Shown one piece after another: positions 1,624-34,245 of a stretch of 64,000 bases of DNA. Position 1 is the stretch's first letter; every line of letters begins with the position of its first letter. A program made the translations under genes and the position numbers. Origin of the DNA: Anaerolineae bacterium (lineage in GTDB: Bacteria; Chloroflexota; Anaerolineae; Aggregatilineales; UBA3940); contig JAFGOY010000010.1 of the NCBI GenBank assembly GCA_016926255.1, positions 119,007 through 183,006 on the forward strand, written 5' to 3'. Below the pieces are notes generated by a model that ran no database searches, was not told where the DNA came from, and saw only the letters and a program-made list of their open reading frames with translations.

Positions 1624-2907
1624 TTAGCCCTCGACCTGCACGAGGTGATACTTCTTCTTGCCCTTCCGCAGTACGATCACCTGCCCATCGATGGCATCGC
1701 TCAGGCTGATTGTCGCCTCGACGTCGTCGCGTTTCTCGTTGTTGACGCTTACCCCTCCGCCATCGATCAGCGTCCGGGCGCGTTTCTTCGAGCTTTCGAA
1801 TCCGCACTCAACCGCCAGATCGACCAGCGATTTGCCTTCCAGATCGGCCCCGGCGAAGGTGCTCGACGGCACCTCGGCGAAGATGTCGAGCAGTTGGGCG
1901 GCACTCAAGCCTTCGAGTTCCCCGCCGAACAAAACTTCGGTCGCCTTGAGCGCGGCGGCCAGCCCTTCCTCGCCGTGAACGTTCCGCGTGACTTCTTCGG
2001 CCAGCCGCTTCTGGGTGGCGCGTTCGTGCGGTGCTTCTTCGATTGCCTTCTCGTATTCGGCCACCTCGTCCTGATCGAGCAGCGTGAAGTACTTCATGTA
2101 AGTGATCGCGTCCGCGTCGGCGGTGTTCAGCCAGAACTGGTAGAACCGGTAGGGCGACGTCCGGTTCGGGTCGAGCCAGACCGTGCCCGCCTCTGTCTTG
2201 CCGAACTTCACCCCGGTCGACGAGGTGACCAGCGGCACCACCGCGCCGTAGGCTTTGCCGTCATCCATCTTGCGGATCAGTTCCGCTCCGGCGGTGATGT
2301 TGCCCCACTGGTCACTGCCCCCGAACTGGAAGGTGCAGCCGTAATCGCGGTACAGTGTCAAAAAGTCGTAGGATTGCAGCAGCATGTAGCAGAACTCGGT
2401 AAAGGAGATGCCTTCTTCGCTTTCGAGCCGGGTCTTCACCGATTCTTTTGACAGCATGTAGTTGACCGTGAACCGCTTGCCCACGTCACGCAGAAACTCG
2501 ATGAAGTTGAGTTCGCGCAGCCAGTCGCCGTTGTTGACCATCACTGCCGGGTTATCGACGCCTTCGAACGCCAGGAACATTTCAAGCTGGGCGTGAATAC
2601 CCTCCAGGTTGTGATCGATCTGTTCCAGCGAAAGCAGTTGACGTTCTTTGGTCTTTCCGCTTGGGTCGCCGATCATCCCCGTGCCGCCGCCTACCAGCGC
2701 GATAGGTGTATGCCCGTGCCGTTGCATATGTACCAGCACCATGATCGGCAGCAGCGACCCGACGTGCAGGCTGTCGGCGGATGGGTCGAAGCCGATGTAA
2801 CCGGCGATCTTCTCCTTCTTGACGACGTCTTCCACGCCCTCGGTGATATCGTAGAGCAGGCCGCGCCAGCGCAGTTCTTCGATCAGGTTGGGGGCCAGAG
2901 TGCCCAT
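1624..2907 (-). CDS. tyrS: Tyrosine--tRNA ligase
   Basis: GFDPSADSLHVGS (HIGH), QFGGSDQWGNI, KFGKT (KMSKS equivalent), C-terminal S4 domain with RKGKK. SD AAGGAG. Confidence 0.98.
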   Translation of the reverse strand: MGTLAPNLIEELRWRGLLYDITEGVEDVVKKEKIAGYIGFDPSADSLHVGSLLPIMVLVHMQRHGHTPIALVGGGTGMIGDPSGKTKERQLLSLEQIDHNLEGIHAQLEMFLAFEGVDNPAVMVNNGDWLRELNFIEFLRDVGKRFTVNYMLSKESVKTRLESEEGISFTEFCYMLLQSYDFLTLYRDYGCTFQFGGSDQWGNITAGAELIRKMDDGKAYGAVVPLVTSSTGVKFGKTEAGTVWLDPNRTSPYRFYQFWLNTADADAITYMKYFTLLDQDEVAEYEKAIEEAPHERATQKRLAEEVTRNVHGEEGLAAALKATEVLFGGELEGLSAAQLLDIFAEVPSSTFAGADLEGKSLVDLAVECGFESSKKRARTLIDGGGVSVNNEKRDDVEATISLSDAIDGQVIVLRKGKKKYHLVQVEG

Positions 2908-2944
2908 AGGTCAATCTCCTTTTCTCTCGTCGATGTCAATTCGC

Positions 2945-2973
2945 AAAAAAAGCGCGGAGCATGTGCTCCGCGC
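2945..2973 (-). terminator. Intrinsic terminator (attenuator) in the tyrS leader
   Basis: Minus strand GCGCGGAGC-ACAT-GCTCCGCGC (perfect 9-bp stem) followed by 7 T, about 40 nt upstream of the tyrS ATG. Confidence 0.9.
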
Positions 2974-3003
2974 CGGGTTATCGATCTGCAAGGCAGGGGC
3001 CGA

Positions 3004-3078
3004 TTATCTCCCTGAGACGCGAGCCATGCTCACTCGTATGGCTTTGGAATAATAGTATAGATTGCTATTCCTGAGCAT
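3004..3078 (-). CDS. Putative tyrS attenuator leader peptide MLRNSNLYYYSKAIRVSMARVSGR
   Basis: Translated by hand: ATG at 3078, TAC-TAT-TAT at codons 8-10, TAA at 3006-3004. Purine-rich AGAAGGCAGG just upstream. Lies between a promoter and the terminator. Confidence 0.8.
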   Translation of the reverse strand: MLRNSNLYYYSKAIRVSMARVSGR

Positions 3079-3109
3079 GTCGGCCTGCCTTCTGTTCGAT
3101 CTTGCGCAT

Positions 3110-3138
3110 AGAGTAGCACGGCGGCAGTGAACCGTCAA
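3110..3138 (-). promoter_or_regulatory. Sigma70-type promoter for the tyrS leader
   Basis: TTGACG (3138-3133), 17-nt spacer, TG-n-TACTCT (3115-3110), immediately after the PBP stop codon. Confidence 0.75.
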
Positions 3139-3139
3139 G

Positions 3140-6127
3140 CTACTCGCCGCTGTCTTCCGGCACCGGCACGATCGTGATCGGCACGGTGAAGGGTGTCAGA
3201 TAGTTGCTGTCCTGCCTGACGAGCACCAGCCTGACCACATATGGTCCTGGCGGGAACACGTCCGAGGCGTCGGCGTGGAGTTCTTCCAGTACGCCGTCCT
3301 CGACCGGTTCTGTATGCACCCCGCCAAAGGTGATCCACTCGGTGGGGAACTCTCCGGGGCCGATCTCCAGCTTGTAGTATTGAATCTCCGCCGGGTCGAA
3401 AATCGCCGTCCCGATGATCGGGTGGATGCCGTAGACCTCGTCGCCGGGGTTCGGATCGTCGATGGCATACATCGACCCCGTATCGGCGTCGACGAACAGG
3501 TCGGCGGGAATGGTGTCCCCCAGGTCTTCGGTCGGGCAGAGGATGCCGGGTTCAATCGGGATGCCGTTTGCCAGCGCCCAGTTGCGTGCGCGGATCGCAT
3601 CGCCCTCGTCGTCCGGCGCGCTGATGAACAACTGCACGGCAGCGCCTTCCACATCCTCGATGTCGGCGGACATCACACAGTATTTCGGCGTCGCCGGGGT
3701 AGGGAGATCGTCCGGGAGCGCGTCCCAGCTGTCAGCCATCAACTCAACCAGCGCCGCCTGCTGATCCTCGTTCATTGCCAGCACGCTGATCTGCCACAGA
3801 CCCTCGCTGACTTCCTCATGGAGCGGAGGGAGGTGTTCCTCTTCTTCGTCGCCCTCGTCGGCTTCCTCGTCCGGCGTCGGGCTGGGAGTCGGTTCGAGAG
3901 TTGGCGTCGGCTCCGGGTCCCATTCCGAGGTGCCTATACGGAACCATTCGTCACGCTCAAGCGGGCAGCCCTCTTCGGCCAGCCGGGGATCGCGCAGCGA
4001 TGAAAGTACGCACACCGGCTGCTTCTCCAATCCCTGTGGGGCGCTGAAACCGCTCCGCAGCGGCGGCAGTCCTTCCCCACCGATCAGGCTGTCGATGTGG
4101 GGCAGTGCATAGACTGCCGTCATATAGTCATGCCAGATCGGTGCCGCACCGGTCAGTCCGGAAGTCCCTTCGGCCATCGGCGTGTTGTCGGTGTTGCCCG
4201 CCCACACGGCGACGACCAGATGCGGCGTATAGCCGACCGTCCAGTTGTCGCGGTAATCGTTGGTGGTACCCGTTTTGGCCGCCGCCGGGAAGTCGAGCAG
4301 CAGCGCCGATTCGGCCCCCATCGCCGGGGTGCGGGCGGTGTTGTCGGAGAGAATATCGCTGATCATGAATGCGATGCGCGGGTCGATCACCTGTTCCTGT
4401 GTCTGTGAAGGCGTTTCGTAGAGAACGTTTCCTTCATCGTCTGTGATGCGGGTGATGTAAATCGGCTCGATGGCCTTCCCACCGTTGGCGAACGCGCTGA
4501 ACGCCGTTGCCATTTCTATCGGCTCAACCTCCCCGCCGCCCAGTGTCAGTGACAGGCCGTAGAGGGAAGCGTCATCGCCCAGGCTCTCGATCCCCAGCCG
4601 TGACGACATCTCCAGAATGCCCGGCACGCCGACCTCGCGGGCAAGCGTCACCGCCGGGATGTTATATGAGTTTGCCAGTGCATCGCGCAGGCGCACCGGC
4701 CCGTGAAAGCGTTCGTCGTAGTTGACCGGTTCGTAAGCGCCGACGCCGGTATCGTAGACCATCGGCACGTCCCACAGCACGTCGGAGGGGTTCCAGCCCT
4801 GCTCCATCGCGGCGGCATAGGTGATCGGCTTCATCGTGCTGCCCGGCTGGTGAGCTGATAACGTGTTGTTGACCGCCCCGTCGATTTCGTCGTTCGCGTA
4901 ATCGACGCTGCCCAGCATCGCCAGGACTTCGCCTGTGTGCGGGTTCAGCGCGATGATCGCCGCGTTGGTCAGGTTGTATTCGTCGCGTACTGCCGCCACC
5001 TGTTCGGCGGCGATCTGCTCGGCCAGGGCCTGCATGTCCATGTCGATGGTCGTGTAGACGACCAGCCCGCCGCGTTCGATCATATCCGGCTCGATGCCGG
5101 GAATCTCGCCAAGCTGCCGCCGTACTTCGACCGTGAAGTGTGGAGCAAGCAGCGAGATGTTCGGGCTGGCTAAATCGCTGACCGATGTCGGCGGCTGGTT
5201 AAAGGCTTCGTCGGCCTGCGCGATGCTCAGGTAACCGTGACGTACCATCAAATCGAGTACCTGCCGCTGGCGGACCTTTGCCCCGGCGAAGTTCGAATAC
5301 GGATCGTAAGTAGCCGGAGACTGTGGCAGCCCGGCCAGGAAGGAGGCTTCGGCGACCGTCAGGTCACGCGCCGGTTTGTCGAAATAGGTTTGCGCGGCAG
5401 CTTCGATCCCGTAAGCCAGGTTCCCGTATGGAATCTGGTTCAGGTACAGCTCAAGGATTTCGTCCTTGGAATATTCGCGGGTCATCACATAGGCGAGGGC
5501 GGCTTCTTTGAGCTTACGCCGCAGCGTTTGTTCGAGGCGTTCTTCCGGCTCGAAGACGATCATCTTGACTAACTGCTGGGTGATCGTGCTGCCGCCGGAG
5601 ACGATCTCGCCTTCCTGCTGCCATTGAATCGCCGCGCGGGTGATTGAAGCCGGGTCGAATCCGGGATTCTCGTAAAACGTATCGTCCTCGGTGGCGATGG
5701 TCGCCCAGCGCAGCGAAAATGGTATCTGTTCGATGGGAACTTCGGTGCGCCGCCCTTCGGTGATCACCTGGTACAACTCGACCGTGCCACTCCGATCCAG
5801 GATGCGGGTCGTTTCGAAATCCTCGACCCCTTCCATTGATTCGAGCGTGGCGATATCTTCGGCGACTTCGTCTTTCATCGAGTTGTAGATCATCAAGGCA
5901 ATCACCAGCCCTGATCCAACCAGCGCAGCCAGTACCATCGCCGTGATCGCCAGCCCGCTTTTGAAGCAGCCCCAGCGCCCTTTCCGGCGGCGTTTGCGCG
6001 GCGGCGGCGCTTCAGCGATGGGCTGGTAATAGTCAGGCTGGTAGTTGGGAGGCATCGGCGCACGCTGAGTTGTTTGCTGGTGCGGCTCAATAGCCGGTTC
6101 GTTTTCATGTGTAGGCTCTTCGACCAT
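3140..6127 (-). CDS. Class A penicillin-binding protein (PBP1A family transglycosylase/transpeptidase) with an acidic C-terminal extension
   Basis: GT51 motifs (EDDTF, GGSTITQQLVK, RKLKE, LYLN), transpeptidase SxxK (STMK), SYN, KTGT. Start moved to ATG 6127, which follows an AGAGGAG SD (ORF track starts at 6298). Confidence 0.93.
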   Translation of the reverse strand: MVEEPTHENEPAIEPHQQTTQRAPMPPNYQPDYYQPIAEAPPPRKRRRKGRWGCFKSGLAITAMVLAALVGSGLVIALMIYNSMKDEVAEDIATLESMEGVEDFETTRILDRSGTVELYQVITEGRRTEVPIEQIPFSLRWATIATEDDTFYENPGFDPASITRAAIQWQQEGEIVSGGSTITQQLVKMIVFEPEERLEQTLRRKLKEAALAYVMTREYSKDEILELYLNQIPYGNLAYGIEAAAQTYFDKPARDLTVAEASFLAGLPQSPATYDPYSNFAGAKVRQRQVLDLMVRHGYLSIAQADEAFNQPPTSVSDLASPNISLLAPHFTVEVRRQLGEIPGIEPDMIERGGLVVYTTIDMDMQALAEQIAAEQVAAVRDEYNLTNAAIIALNPHTGEVLAMLGSVDYANDEIDGAVNNTLSAHQPGSTMKPITYAAAMEQGWNPSDVLWDVPMVYDTGVGAYEPVNYDERFHGPVRLRDALANSYNIPAVTLAREVGVPGILEMSSRLGIESLGDDASLYGLSLTLGGGEVEPIEMATAFSAFANGGKAIEPIYITRITDDEGNVLYETPSQTQEQVIDPRIAFMISDILSDNTARTPAMGAESALLLDFPAAAKTGTTNDYRDNWTVGYTPHLVVAVWAGNTDNTPMAEGTSGLTGAAPIWHDYMTAVYALPHIDSLIGGEGLPPLRSGFSAPQGLEKQPVCVLSSLRDPRLAEEGCPLERDEWFRIGTSEWDPEPTPTLEPTPSPTPDEEADEGDEEEEHLPPLHEEVSEGLWQISVLAMNEDQQAALVELMADSWDALPDDLPTPATPKYCVMSADIEDVEGAAVQLFISAPDDEGDAIRARNWALANGIPIEPGILCPTEDLGDTIPADLFVDADTGSMYAIDDPNPGDEVYGIHPIIGTAIFDPAEIQYYKLEIGPGEFPTEWITFGGVHTEPVEDGVLEELHADASDVFPPGPYVVRLVLVRQDSNYLTPFTVPITIVPVPEDSGE

Positions 6128-6358
6128 GACTCCTCTTTCCTGGTAATTATTGAACCATAATCGCGATTCTATCACGCGATTGCGGCCTTGACATTGATTT
6201 CTTGTGGGCATTCCGAAATATAAGAAAAGTATAAATTGTGCTTGCATGGGTTGATCGTTCGGTGTGACTCCCCGGTGTTTGTGGTACACTCCGTTCACTA
6301 GTTCGATTGTACAGCCAGTCTTGCTGGCTTAATTGATTTTAAGTGTGAGGTTTTACTG

Positions 6359-15810: not shown

Positions 15811-15832
15811 GATGTTCGACACAGATGGCTTC

Positions 15833-15925
15833 AACTCCCTCCGCCGGTATTACCCGGATCAGGTTCAGGGGTCGATGCAGGATTATGCACCCTCTCAGCT
15901 TGCTTCACGCAGGCTCCCCCGTGAT
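15833..15925 (-). ncRNA. TPP riboswitch aptamer
   Basis: Minus strand GGGGAGCC...GCTGAGA...CCC-TGAACCTGATCCGGGTAATACCGGCGGAGGGAG matches the THI-box consensus. Upstream of thiamine genes. Confidence 0.95.
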
Positions 15926-16046
15926 GGGATATCATTTTGTCAATGTGAACAGACTATAGCGCGCCGATTTGTTTCCTGCCAGTATTGCCCCTGTGATCGT
16001 TCTGCGCCGGTTTCGGCCCGCCTCCAAACCGACTATAATTCAATCC

Positions 16047-32988: not shown

Positions 32989-33016
32989 TTGACAGCATCC
33001 GACAGGACGTTATACT
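32989..33016 (+). promoter_or_regulatory. Sigma70 promoter of the his operon
   Basis: TTGACA (32989-32994), 16-nt spacer, TATACT (33011-33016). Confidence 0.8.
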
Positions 33017-33025
33017 TAGGGCACT

Positions 33026-33100
33026 ATGAGTAAAATGACTGTTCACGCTCACCATCAGCACCATCATCATAAGACCAGCATCGAAGAGACCCGGTGGTGA
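33026..33100 (+). CDS. hisL: his operon attenuator leader peptide MSKMTVHAHHQHHHHKTSIEETRW
   Basis: 7 His codons within 9 codons, TGA at 33098-33100. Sits between the promoter and terminator upstream of hisG. The start could be ATG 33035. Confidence 0.9.
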   Translation: MSKMTVHAHHQHHHHKTSIEETRW

Positions 33101-33165
33101 TTTTGCTGCGTGCGTTCGAACAATCATAAGGAAGCCAGCAGCTTCCAGTGTGAGCAGGCAAAACC

Positions 33166-33195
33166 AAAGCCCCCCGAGGTCCGGGGGGCTTTTTT
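33166..33195 (+). terminator. Attenuator terminator of the his operon
   Basis: AAAGCCCCCCG-AGGTC-CGGGGGGCTTT followed by TTT, about 27 nt before the hisG ATG. Confidence 0.92.
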
Positions 33196-33222
33196 AGTGG
33201 CCTGAAAAAAGGAAAACGTCAA

Positions 33223-34245
33223 ATGGACGAGTCACAGGTTCGCCTTTCCCTGCCCAGCAAGGGGCGGATGGAAGAAGAAACGAAGGCATTCCTCGATGAA
33301 TGCGGGATGCGGATCGAGATCACCAACCCGCGCCAGTACTTCGCCCGAATCCCGGCGCTGCCACAGGTTCAGGTGTTGTTCCAGCGGGCGCGTGATATCG
33401 CCCGATCGGTTGAGGCTGGTGACGTCGATCTGGCGATCACGGGCTTCGATATCATCGTCGATACGCTGGGCGAGGATCACCCGGAACTGGTGGTGATCCA
33501 CGAGGCGCTGGGATACAGCCATTGCAAGCTGGCGCTGGCCGTTCCCTATGAATGGGACGATGTGAGCGACATGAAATCGCTGGGCGAACGGGCGTCCCGC
33601 TCACCGGAAGGGCTGCGCGTGGCAACCAGGTACGTCAACGCGACTCGCGGCTACCTCGACCGGCACGGCCTGAGCCAGATTCGGATCGTCAGCGCGGATG
33701 GCGCGTTGGAAGCTGCCCCCTCGATTGGCTATGCAGAGCTGATCGCCGACATCACCTCGACCGGGACGACTCTGCGCGAAAACCTCCTCAAGCTGCTCGA
33801 TGGCGGCACGATAGTCGAGTCGCAGGCGGTGCTGGTTGGCAATCGAAAGGCGCTGGAATCGCGCCCGGCGGTGCGTGAAACGACGCGCCAACTGCTGGAA
33901 TTCATCGAGGCGCACCTGAGAGCCAGAGGCCAGTATCTCGTGTTCGCCAATATGCGCGGCGAGAGCAAAGACGAGATCGCCCGGCGGATTTTCGAGCAGC
34001 CCAACCTGGGCGGCTTGCAAGGCCCGACCATCTCGCAGGTGCTCACCCGTGACGGCGACAGCGGCTGGTGGGCGATCAATCTGGTGATTGCCCATGACAA
34101 ACTCTACGACTGCGTGCGGCAGGTGCGGGCCGCCGGGGGCAGCGGGGTGGTGATCACTCCGGTGGTTTACATCTTCGAGGAATACCCGGAGCGCTTCCGC
34201 AGGCTGCTGGACAATCTTGGACTACAGGAGGAGTTGGGAGAATGA
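33223..34245 (+). CDS. hisG: ATP phosphoribosyltransferase (long form)
   Basis: SLPSKGR, DLAITGFD, GALEAAPSIG..ELIADITSTGTTLREN, C-terminal regulatory domain (PTIS). Confidence 0.96.
   Translation: MDESQVRLSLPSKGRMEEETKAFLDECGMRIEITNPRQYFARIPALPQVQVLFQRARDIARSVEAGDVDLAITGFDIIVDTLGEDHPELVVIHEALGYSHCKLALAVPYEWDDVSDMKSLGERASRSPEGLRVATRYVNATRGYLDRHGLSQIRIVSADGALEAAPSIGYAELIADITSTGTTLRENLLKLLDGGTIVESQAVLVGNRKALESRPAVRETTRQLLEFIEAHLRARGQYLVFANMRGESKDEIARRIFEQPNLGGLQGPTISQVLTRDGDSGWWAINLVIAHDKLYDCVRQVRAAGGSGVVITPVVYIFEEYPERFRRLLDNLGLQEELGE

Follow-up and report, generated by a model that had tools for sequence, protein, structure and literature searches.

A predicted tyrosine-codon leader-peptide attenuator upstream of tyrS in an Anaerolineae bacterium and its relation to the aromatic leaders of aro operons

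In the metagenome-assembled genome of an uncultured Anaerolineae bacterium (Chloroflexota), the tyrosyl-tRNA synthetase (TyrRS) gene tyrS lies behind an intrinsic transcription terminator, and there is no conserved promoter between this terminator and the ATG, so that expression of an essential gene depends on read-through. What governs this read-through is the question addressed here. The gene occupies positions 1624..2907 of the window, i.e., the whole 64,000-nt stretch of DNA that was analyzed, in which all coordinates are given; both the gene and its leader are read on the minus strand. It is the sole TyrRS gene found in the genome (one match), and its product harbors the Pfam domains tRNA-synt_1b (8.6e-81), SYY_C-terminal and S4. 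An initial annotation of the locus had proposed that ribosome stalling at a run of Tyr codons in a short leader open reading frame (ORF) controls the terminator. The analysis reported here leads to the same view, namely that the tyrS leader is most probably a classical ribosome-mediated, or leader-peptide, transcription attenuator set by the supply of charged tRNA-Tyr, a reading to which we assign a probability of roughly 0.85. It is supported by the results described below, and the three tests that the annotation had named as able to refute it all turned out in its favor.

The promoter, the Shine-Dalgarno (SD)-like site, the 24-residue ORF with its Tyr run, the terminator and tyrS were all recovered in place on the minus strand. 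The leader follows a gene for a class A penicillin-binding protein (PBP; 3140-6298), whose stop codon directly precedes a -35-like hexamer, TTGACG (3133..3138), separated by a 17-nt spacer from an extended -10 element, TGcTACTCT (3110..3118); transcription is predicted to start near 3103. The -35-like hexamer is kept in a sister species and in metagenomic contigs, and the CCGTGCTACYCTATGCGCA of the -10 element is conserved, with variation in the promoter spacer at 3126-3123. The -10 box, as TGCTACAAT or TGCTACACT, is also found before tyrS in genome G022 and before the leader of the aromatic biosynthesis (aro) operon in the window's own genome (G000). The ribosome-binding site AGAAGGCAGG (3093-3084) contains the SD-like site AAGGCAGG (3084..3091), which doubles as the 5' strand of a helix designated P0. 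Its AAGG lies 9 nt 5' of the ATG of the upstream ORF (uORF), and the SD site of tyrS itself, AAGGAG (2921-2916), has equal spacing. The uORF (3004..3078, with its ATG at 3078 and TAA at 3006-3004) comprises 24 codons followed by TAA and encodes MLRNSNLYYYSKAIRVSMARVSGR*, in which the control codons TAC TAT TAT (3049..3057) specify Tyr-Tyr-Tyr.

Several segments of the leader RNA are able to pair with one another. Region 1, CAUGCUC (3073..3079), includes the uORF start codon and is able to form a protector helix with GAGCAUG (3031-3025). Region 2, the 5' strand of the antiterminator (GAGCAUGGCUCGCGUC, 3016..3031), lies toward the 3' end of the uORF, starting 17 nt past the last Tyr codon, close to the 18 nt proposed earlier, and ending 9 nt before the stop codon. 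Farther downstream, CCUGCCUU (2990..2997) constitutes the 3' strand of P0 and pairs with the SD region. The intrinsic terminator, GGCGCGGAGC-ACAT-GCTCCGCGC(T) in DNA, has its stem at 2974-2951 and a T7 run at 2951-2945, which corresponds in RNA to GGCGCGGAGC-ACAU-GCUCCGCGC(U) followed by U7 (2945..2974). Described initially as a 9-bp hairpin about 40 nt before tyrS, it has 10 pairs, 8 of them GC, and is found 37 nt before the ATG. The antiterminator 3' strand (2974-2957) spans the 5' strand and loop of the terminator and runs into the first bases of its 3' strand. The proposed complementarity between GAGCATGGCTCGCG (3031-3018) and CGCGGAGCACATGCTC (2972-2957) was confirmed and extends by two further pairs, to 3016 and 2974, and the helices formed by the SD region with 2997-2990 and by CAUGCUC with GAGCAUG come in addition to those of the initial annotation. 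The leader DNA is single-copy in the genome, and a repeat or mobile element was rejected. Below the terminator, a candidate internal promoter was rejected as well, as the hexamer TTGACA at 2939-2934 lacks a usable -10 element and has been kept neither by the sister species nor by the metagenomic variants.

The features by which leader-peptide attenuators are recognized, that is, an ORF with an SD site, a cluster of cognate codons, an intrinsic terminator and a mutually exclusive antiterminator, are thus all found in this leader, and together they suggest the following course of events. Transcription would start from the promoter just behind the PBP gene, and a ribosome would load at AAGG-N9-AUG and translate the 24-codon leader. 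With Tyr-tRNA plentiful, the ribosome would reach the TAA codon and cover roughly 3021-2991, and with it both the P0 3' strand and the 3' half of region 2; the terminator at 2974-2945 would then fold, and most transcripts would stop before tyrS. With Tyr-tRNA scarce, the ribosome would stall with a Tyr codon (3057-3049) in its A site and cover the RNA only to about 3039, leaving region 2 (3031-3016) free to pair with the emerging terminator 5' strand, then with the loop and the first bases of the 3' strand. Formation of this antiterminator would preclude the terminator, and RNA polymerase would enter tyrS. Should the leader not be translated, P0 and the region 1:2 helix would lock it, and termination would prevail. 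The ribosome footprints used for this geometry are general knowledge. Translation of the uORF, the positions of the footprints and the response to tyrosine are all predicted.

To estimate how readily such an arrangement might arise by chance, the leader was shuffled 20,000 times with its dinucleotide composition preserved. Three consecutive Tyr codons within an ATG-to-stop ORF occurred in a fraction of 5e-5 of these shuffles, and an ORF with a triple run of any residue in 4%. The antiterminator duplex, taken as the best pairing that the RNA 3' of the Tyr codons can form with the 5' strand, the loop and the initial 3'-strand bases of the terminator, reaches -26.3 kcal/mol, compared with -17.7 +/- 2.7 in shuffles (P=0.005). 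For the P0 helix (3091-3084 : 2997-2990), the corresponding values are -23.6 and -12.5 +/- 3.0 (P=0.0007). The full leader folds into P0, internal hairpins and the terminator, with a free energy of -71.8 kcal/mol (z -3.7).

The two conformers invoked in the initial annotation can both be folded, the full leader adopting the terminator form. To mimic stalling, the RNA covered or trailed by a ribosome on the third Tyr codon was removed before folding. In nascent RNA extending to the terminator loop, the antiterminator was then the minimum free energy (MFE) structure in 5/6 haplotypes. In the complete RNA, it was the MFE structure for the window sequence, whereas in the other haplotypes the terminator form was more stable by 1-5 kcal/mol, indicating that the choice would be kinetic. 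The helix between CAUGCUC (3079-3073) and GAGCAUG (3031-3025) is part of the MFE folds in 5/6 haplotypes; it is paired in 98% of alignment cells, and 6/7 of its pairs are invariant, which gives the leader a 1:2 / 2:3 / 3:4 layout like that of the trp attenuator. As P0 and the antiterminator are incompatible unless a pseudoknot forms, P0 may constitute a second lock on the terminating form.

Among 40 related genomes, the leader was found before tyrS only in the genome of the same genus, and 18 other orthologous tyrS genes lack it. The TyrRS of this sister species is 90% identical to that of the window, and its uORF is MLRNSHPYYYSNAIQVSMTRVSGR. A pattern scan of species genomes returned only the sister species, and none of the JGI metagenome contigs searched with TyrRS exceeded 71% identity, so that no additional close relatives were obtained from them. 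Six further leader haplotypes were retrieved from Logan contigs of marsh and marine-sediment metagenomes. Tyr-run uORFs were also sought before 95 other tyrS orthologs, and the only instance was L059 (WNFM01167629.1), in which an ORF starting with TTG, LVPKLYYYYQARPQSR, runs over a (TAC)4 repeat about 85 nt upstream of a tyrS gene whose product is 58% identical. With its TTG start, no evident SD site and no terminator, this ORF is probably a chance occurrence and was rejected as a Tyr leader.

The Tyr-rich uORF that the initial annotation expected in relatives is present in the sister species and in the six metagenomic haplotypes, and homologous leaders with Tyr/Phe runs exist in other genera, as described below. 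All 8 haplotypes have kept the ATG, the 24-codon frame, the stop codon and at least two Tyr codons. The run itself is YYY in 6/8 haplotypes, whereas one has TYY and another YTY; a synonymous TAC>TAT change is present in two. The stretch 3091-2944 has the same length in all of them, and indels are confined to the regions upstream of the SD site and downstream of the U-run. The SD-like site is invariant, and the 5-nt spacer that separates it from the ATG varies in sequence and is fixed in length. The P0 3' strand (2997-2990) is also invariant, with variable flanks at 3003, 3000 and 2989, as is the terminator stem. Overall, 4/69 columns are variable in the predicted strands, vs. 30/83 elsewhere in the leader (Fisher 4e-6), and two one-sided changes preserve antiterminator pairs as G-U. 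The stems have thus been kept as anticipated, the terminator and antiterminator strands being almost invariant, and this pattern points to selection on the helix strands of the tyrS leader.

Evidence of a different kind comes from other genera. A covariance model built from the eight tyrS-leader haplotypes only (R1) was searched against 24 genomes of the family. Besides two self-hits, it matched, weakly yet specifically, the aro leaders of genomes G004, G019, G009, G010, G014, and G002, with E values of 2e-5 to 9e-3. In G004, G010, and G002 the matches are found ~4.5 kb upstream of tyrS on the same strand, and in G019, G014, and G009 they are upstream of DAHP synthase. The ORFs of the matched leaders include ...YVYYFYF..., ...WYAYYFYFSRHNRVSMALSAAGC* (WYAYYFYF...RVSMA), and ...FYFDFYYYF.... 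The antiterminator segment GAGCAUGGCUC is common to the tyrS leader and the aro leaders. In the matched aro leaders the segment GAGCATGGCTC encodes the shared peptide tail RVSMA, which is common to the tyrS leader and the aro leader of G010. The terminator of the aro leaders, GGCGCGGAGCATATGCTCCGCGCC and a T-run, is nearly identical to that of the tyrS leader and is followed by a gene for an AroH-type chorismate mutase; this near-identical hairpin ends the aro leaders of G004, G010, G002, and G019. In G004, G010, and G002, an uninterrupted operon follows, comprising aroH (CM_1) and the genes for DAHP synthase (aroF), prephenate dehydrogenase (tyrA), EPSP synthase (aroA) and shikimate dehydrogenase (aroE), and finally tyrS, the gap between aroE and tyrS in G010 being only 18 nt.

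Aromatic leaders of this type appear to be widespread. Short ORFs rich in aromatic codons precede aroH or the DAHP synthase gene in 23/30 relatives from seven families of the order, compared with 2/262 control pieces of 1 kb; the operons can end in tyrS or aroC. In 25 leaders that differ in sequence, the terminator 5' strand and loop are paired, better than in shuffles (mean z -1.95), with a segment whose start lies at a median of 16 nt past the last aromatic codon, so that the pairing seen in the tyrS leader recurs across the family. None of 14 aro and his leader loci matched an Rfam family at E<=0.05, and Rfam leader families (Phe_leader, Trp_leader, His_leader and others) gave no match in the window at gathering score or in the tyrS leader at E<=10. 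The window's own genome has an aro leader as well, on another contig (C82, about 65782-65580, minus strand, outside the window). It encodes MQSGMLHHTNKAQNDAFRFVNAAYAYFFYFYWSHK, with the ending ...AAYAYFFYFYWSHK (YAYFFYFYW), and lies behind a TGCTACACT -10 box; GGGAGCATGGCGC and a related terminator come next, and the last gene of its operon is that of chorismate synthase, not tyrS.

The aro leaders and the tyrS leader share the terminator GGCGCGGAGCAYAUGCUCCGCGC (nearly), a spacing of 14-21 nt past the last control codon and the TGCTACNCT -10 box. They differ in that, in the genomes with an aro-tyrS operon, tyrS is the last gene under the aro leader, whereas the window leader directly precedes tyrS alone. 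Furthermore, the ORFs of the aro leaders have about 35-45 codons rather than 24, and mix Tyr and Phe codons, often with Trp, whereas that of the tyrS leader has Tyr only. The aro leader of G014 is an exception to this mixing, with five Tyr codons in the run YSYYYY. The leader before tyrS therefore appears to be a Tyr-only member of a family of aromatic-codon leaders that head an aro-tyrS operon in related genomes. By its terminator and peptide tail it is nearer to the aro leaders of G010 and G004 than to that of its own genome, and it may have come about either by duplication or as a retained ancestral leader. On balance, we lean towards a retargeted copy: in this genus tyrS would have left the aro operon and kept or regained a copy of its leader, the codons of which became Tyr-only as the RNA switch was retained. 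The corollaries, held with the same modest preference, are that in this lineage tyrS was ancestrally under ribosome-stalling rather than T-box control and that the Anaerolineae possess a large, uncatalogued repertoire of leader peptides.

The surroundings of tyrS also vary in the family. In G022 (L013, contig 283), which belongs to another genus, a PBP gene is directly upstream of tyrS, with a TGCTACAAT -10 box; the tyrS leader there is only ~30 nt long, without uORF or terminator, and the congeneric genome G004 has tyrS within its aro operon. The neighborhood of tyrS has thus been rearranged more than once in the family.

A number of observations weigh against attenuation by leader translation. 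Within the genus, the number of compensatory changes is 0, the divergence being too low (mean column identity 95%); across the family leaders, on the other hand, helix-level co-variation can be seen (GAGCAU:AUGCUC in G010, GAGCG:CGCUC in G019, GGGCAU:AUGUCC in G006 and GGCGUUAGC:GCUAACGCC in G040). The Tyr codons are not more conserved than their surroundings, and one of them is replaced by a Thr codon in 2/8 haplotypes. Similarly, G3024 in region 2 is found only in 2/8 haplotypes, and the A3024 of the other 6/8 weakens the antiterminator. Neither the pairing of region 2 with the terminator 5' strand alone (P=0.32) nor the region 1:2 helix alone (P=0.12) is better than in shuffles. Errors or chimeras are possible in the haplotypes, as these were reconstructed from tables of differences for short Logan contigs, and the helix columns for the Fisher test were set partly after the folds had been seen. 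Three metatranscriptome runs of the source study yielded no contig from the tyrS leader locus. Lastly, the aroR leader peptide of Corynebacterium glutamicum (Phe-Tyr-Phe), located upstream of aroF, attenuates the DAHP synthase operon (Neshat et al. 2014, as summarised in PMC11802643) and has been reported to respond to Phe, not Tyr (PMC11802643); the presence of a codon alone is therefore no proof of a response to that amino acid.

Of the other explanations, the one that best withstands the evidence is that the terminator is regulated by something else, such as an RNA-binding protein (TyrRS, or a TRAP- or PyrR-like protein), a small molecule, e.g., tyrosine, or an uncharged tRNA bound to the domain closed by P0, with the ORF incidental or tolerated. 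This domain, a multi-stem structure of roughly 110 nt upstream of the terminator, does have an aptamer-like layout, and it is the nucleotide strands rather than the peptide that are conserved, translation of the uORF being only predicted. However, several haplotypes carry uncompensated changes that disrupt the internal hairpins H1, H2, and H3, the leader has no match in Rfam, the T-box family included, and inspection by eye revealed no anticodon-arm mimic, RNA-binding-protein site or repeated triplet motif. In addition, the only feature found family-wide upstream of the antiterminator strand is the ORF dense in aromatic codons, the nucleotide sequence and length of which vary, as predicted for a codon sensor and not for an aptamer. 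Regulation of this kind is accordingly considered unlikely.

Slightly less likely again is that there is no regulation at all, the hairpin being simply the terminator of the PBP gene, tyrS being expressed by leaky read-through or from a promoter that escaped recognition, with chance accounting for both the YYY ORF and the complementarity. The hairpin is located 165 nt downstream of the PBP stop codon, among tyrS loci only those of one genus have the leader, and the (TAC)4 ORF of L059 illustrates that a Tyr run can occur by chance, without a terminator, before another tyrS gene. Against such coincidence stand the shuffle probabilities of 5e-5 for the ORF and 0.005 for the antiterminator, the conserved promoter between the PBP stop codon and the uORF, the apparent selection on the helix strands, and the homology to leaders that precede aro-tyrS operons in other genera. 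A divergent T-box, in which UAC in the hairpin loop at 3064-3053 would act as the specifier for uncharged tRNA-Tyr, is very improbable. In its favor, tyrS is the archetypal T-box gene in Firmicutes, to which this organism does not belong, this genome has T-boxes at 8 other loci, and UAC does sit in the loop of H1. However, the leader is only about 150 nt long, lacks a suitably shaped antiterminator whose bulge carries the UGGN of a T-box sequence, and shows free variation of the H1 loop and stem; no match was obtained even at E<=10 in the leader, nor any at tyrS in 20 relatives.

Ribosome-mediated attenuation of tyrS would thus operate in a genome that makes ample use of T-boxes elsewhere. The T-box covariance model (RF00230) has no match at E<=10 over 2850-3250, in agreement with the initial annotation, which had not regarded the leader as a T-box, and no T-box was found near tyrS in 20 related genomes. 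In the rest of the genome, 8 T-boxes precede trpS, trpE, thrS, an alaX-like gene, valS, serS, a cupin-like ORF and pheS; they are found on contigs C35, C67, C8, C62, C47, C38, C9, and C30 of G000, and the Rfam cut-off is exceeded by four of them and not reached by the other four. Within the window, a thiamine pyrophosphate (TPP) riboswitch (RF00059, 60.1 bits) at 15819-15930 on the minus strand is the sole hit to Rfam at gathering score.

A second leader-peptide attenuator of the window, a His leader, is found on the plus strand at 32989-33222, with the promoter TTGACA-N16-TATACT. Its nearly leaderless ORF, MSKMTVHAHHQHHHHKTSIEETRW* (33026-33100), has 24 codons, including seven His codons, and is followed by a terminator (33167-33195) and by hisG (33223-34245), itself followed by hisD and a hisC-like gene. 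The His leader folds into classical alternative structures. It resembles the tyrS leader in its 24-codon ORF, in its GC-rich terminator with a U-run and in the position of its antiterminator strand, which starts 16 nt past the last control codon, compared with 17 nt in the tyrS leader. In contrast, its ORF begins only 9 nt after the -10 box and has no SD site, unlike the uORF of tyrS with its SD-like site; it controls a biosynthetic operon, and its sequence is not homologous to that of the tyrS leader. His-run ORFs were found before hisG in 18/20 relatives with HisG proteins at least 57% identical, and most of them begin a few bases past the -10 box. Because His leaders recur before hisG in this way, leader-peptide attenuation appears to be in routine use in the lineage. 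Scanning the whole genome for leader ORFs ahead of terminators at first gave too much noise; a stricter filter, limited to short ORFs with residue runs, retained mainly two cognate cases, the tyr and his leaders, along with a few chance matches of no relation to them. The aro leader of G000, in which no residue occurs three times in a row, escaped this filter.

The closest precedent among known systems is the pheST operon of E. coli, with its leader gene pheM. There, a synthetase gene is placed under a leader ORF with cognate codons and alternative antiterminator and terminator hairpins, and tRNA charging is read by the translating ribosome. This attenuation has been summarised in PMC11802643. 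The tyrS leader is like that of pheST in that a short ORF with cognate codons and alternative hairpins precede a synthetase gene. They differ in amino acid and phylum, being Phe and Proteobacteria in one case and Tyr and Chloroflexota in the other, and have no sequence relationship; moreover, the tyrS leader has only 3 control codons in its 24-codon ORF, and an extra helix in which the SD site of the uORF pairs with a segment just past the stop codon. The tyrS T-box of Bacillus subtilis (RF00230) shares with the window leader the regulated gene, the signal, namely poorly charged tRNA-Tyr, and the output, which is antitermination at the terminator of the leader. In contrast with this T-box, which binds uncharged tRNA directly, the window leader, which the covariance model does not match, would sense charging via a ribosome on Tyr codons. 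The actinobacterial aroR leader may be regarded as a functional analog of the Anaerolineae aro leaders, to which it is likened by function; it controls biosynthesis and not a synthetase.

Surveys of leaders have been published for actinobacteria and Firmicutes (PMC1262725, PMC9413887). In the searchable literature, no description was found of a tyrS leader peptide, of attenuators in Chloroflexota/Chloroflexi or of aromatic leaders before Anaerolineae aro operons, although an earlier prediction may exist, e.g., in the 2010 survey of attenuators of amino-acid and synthetase operons (Lopatovskaya et al.). The mechanism proposed for the window leader is a textbook one; what appears to be new is its target gene tyrS, the phylum in which it is found and its proposed evolutionary derivation.

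For the organism, this means that one genome splits its synthetase genes between two modes of sensing, with T-boxes for trpS, thrS, valS, serS, and pheS and a ribosome-stalling sensor for tyrS. Elsewhere in the family, one aromatic leader couples tyrS to the genes of tyrosine biosynthesis, and the case of the window suggests that a copy of such a leader can serve one new target once its set of codons has been reduced to match. The aro and his leader families are uncatalogued, and adding them to RNA-family databases would improve the annotation of Anaerolineae metagenome-assembled genomes. If the derivation proposed here is true, the specificity of a stalling sensor has been narrowed by codon replacement, and the leader repertoire of the Anaerolineae sits alongside their T-boxes.

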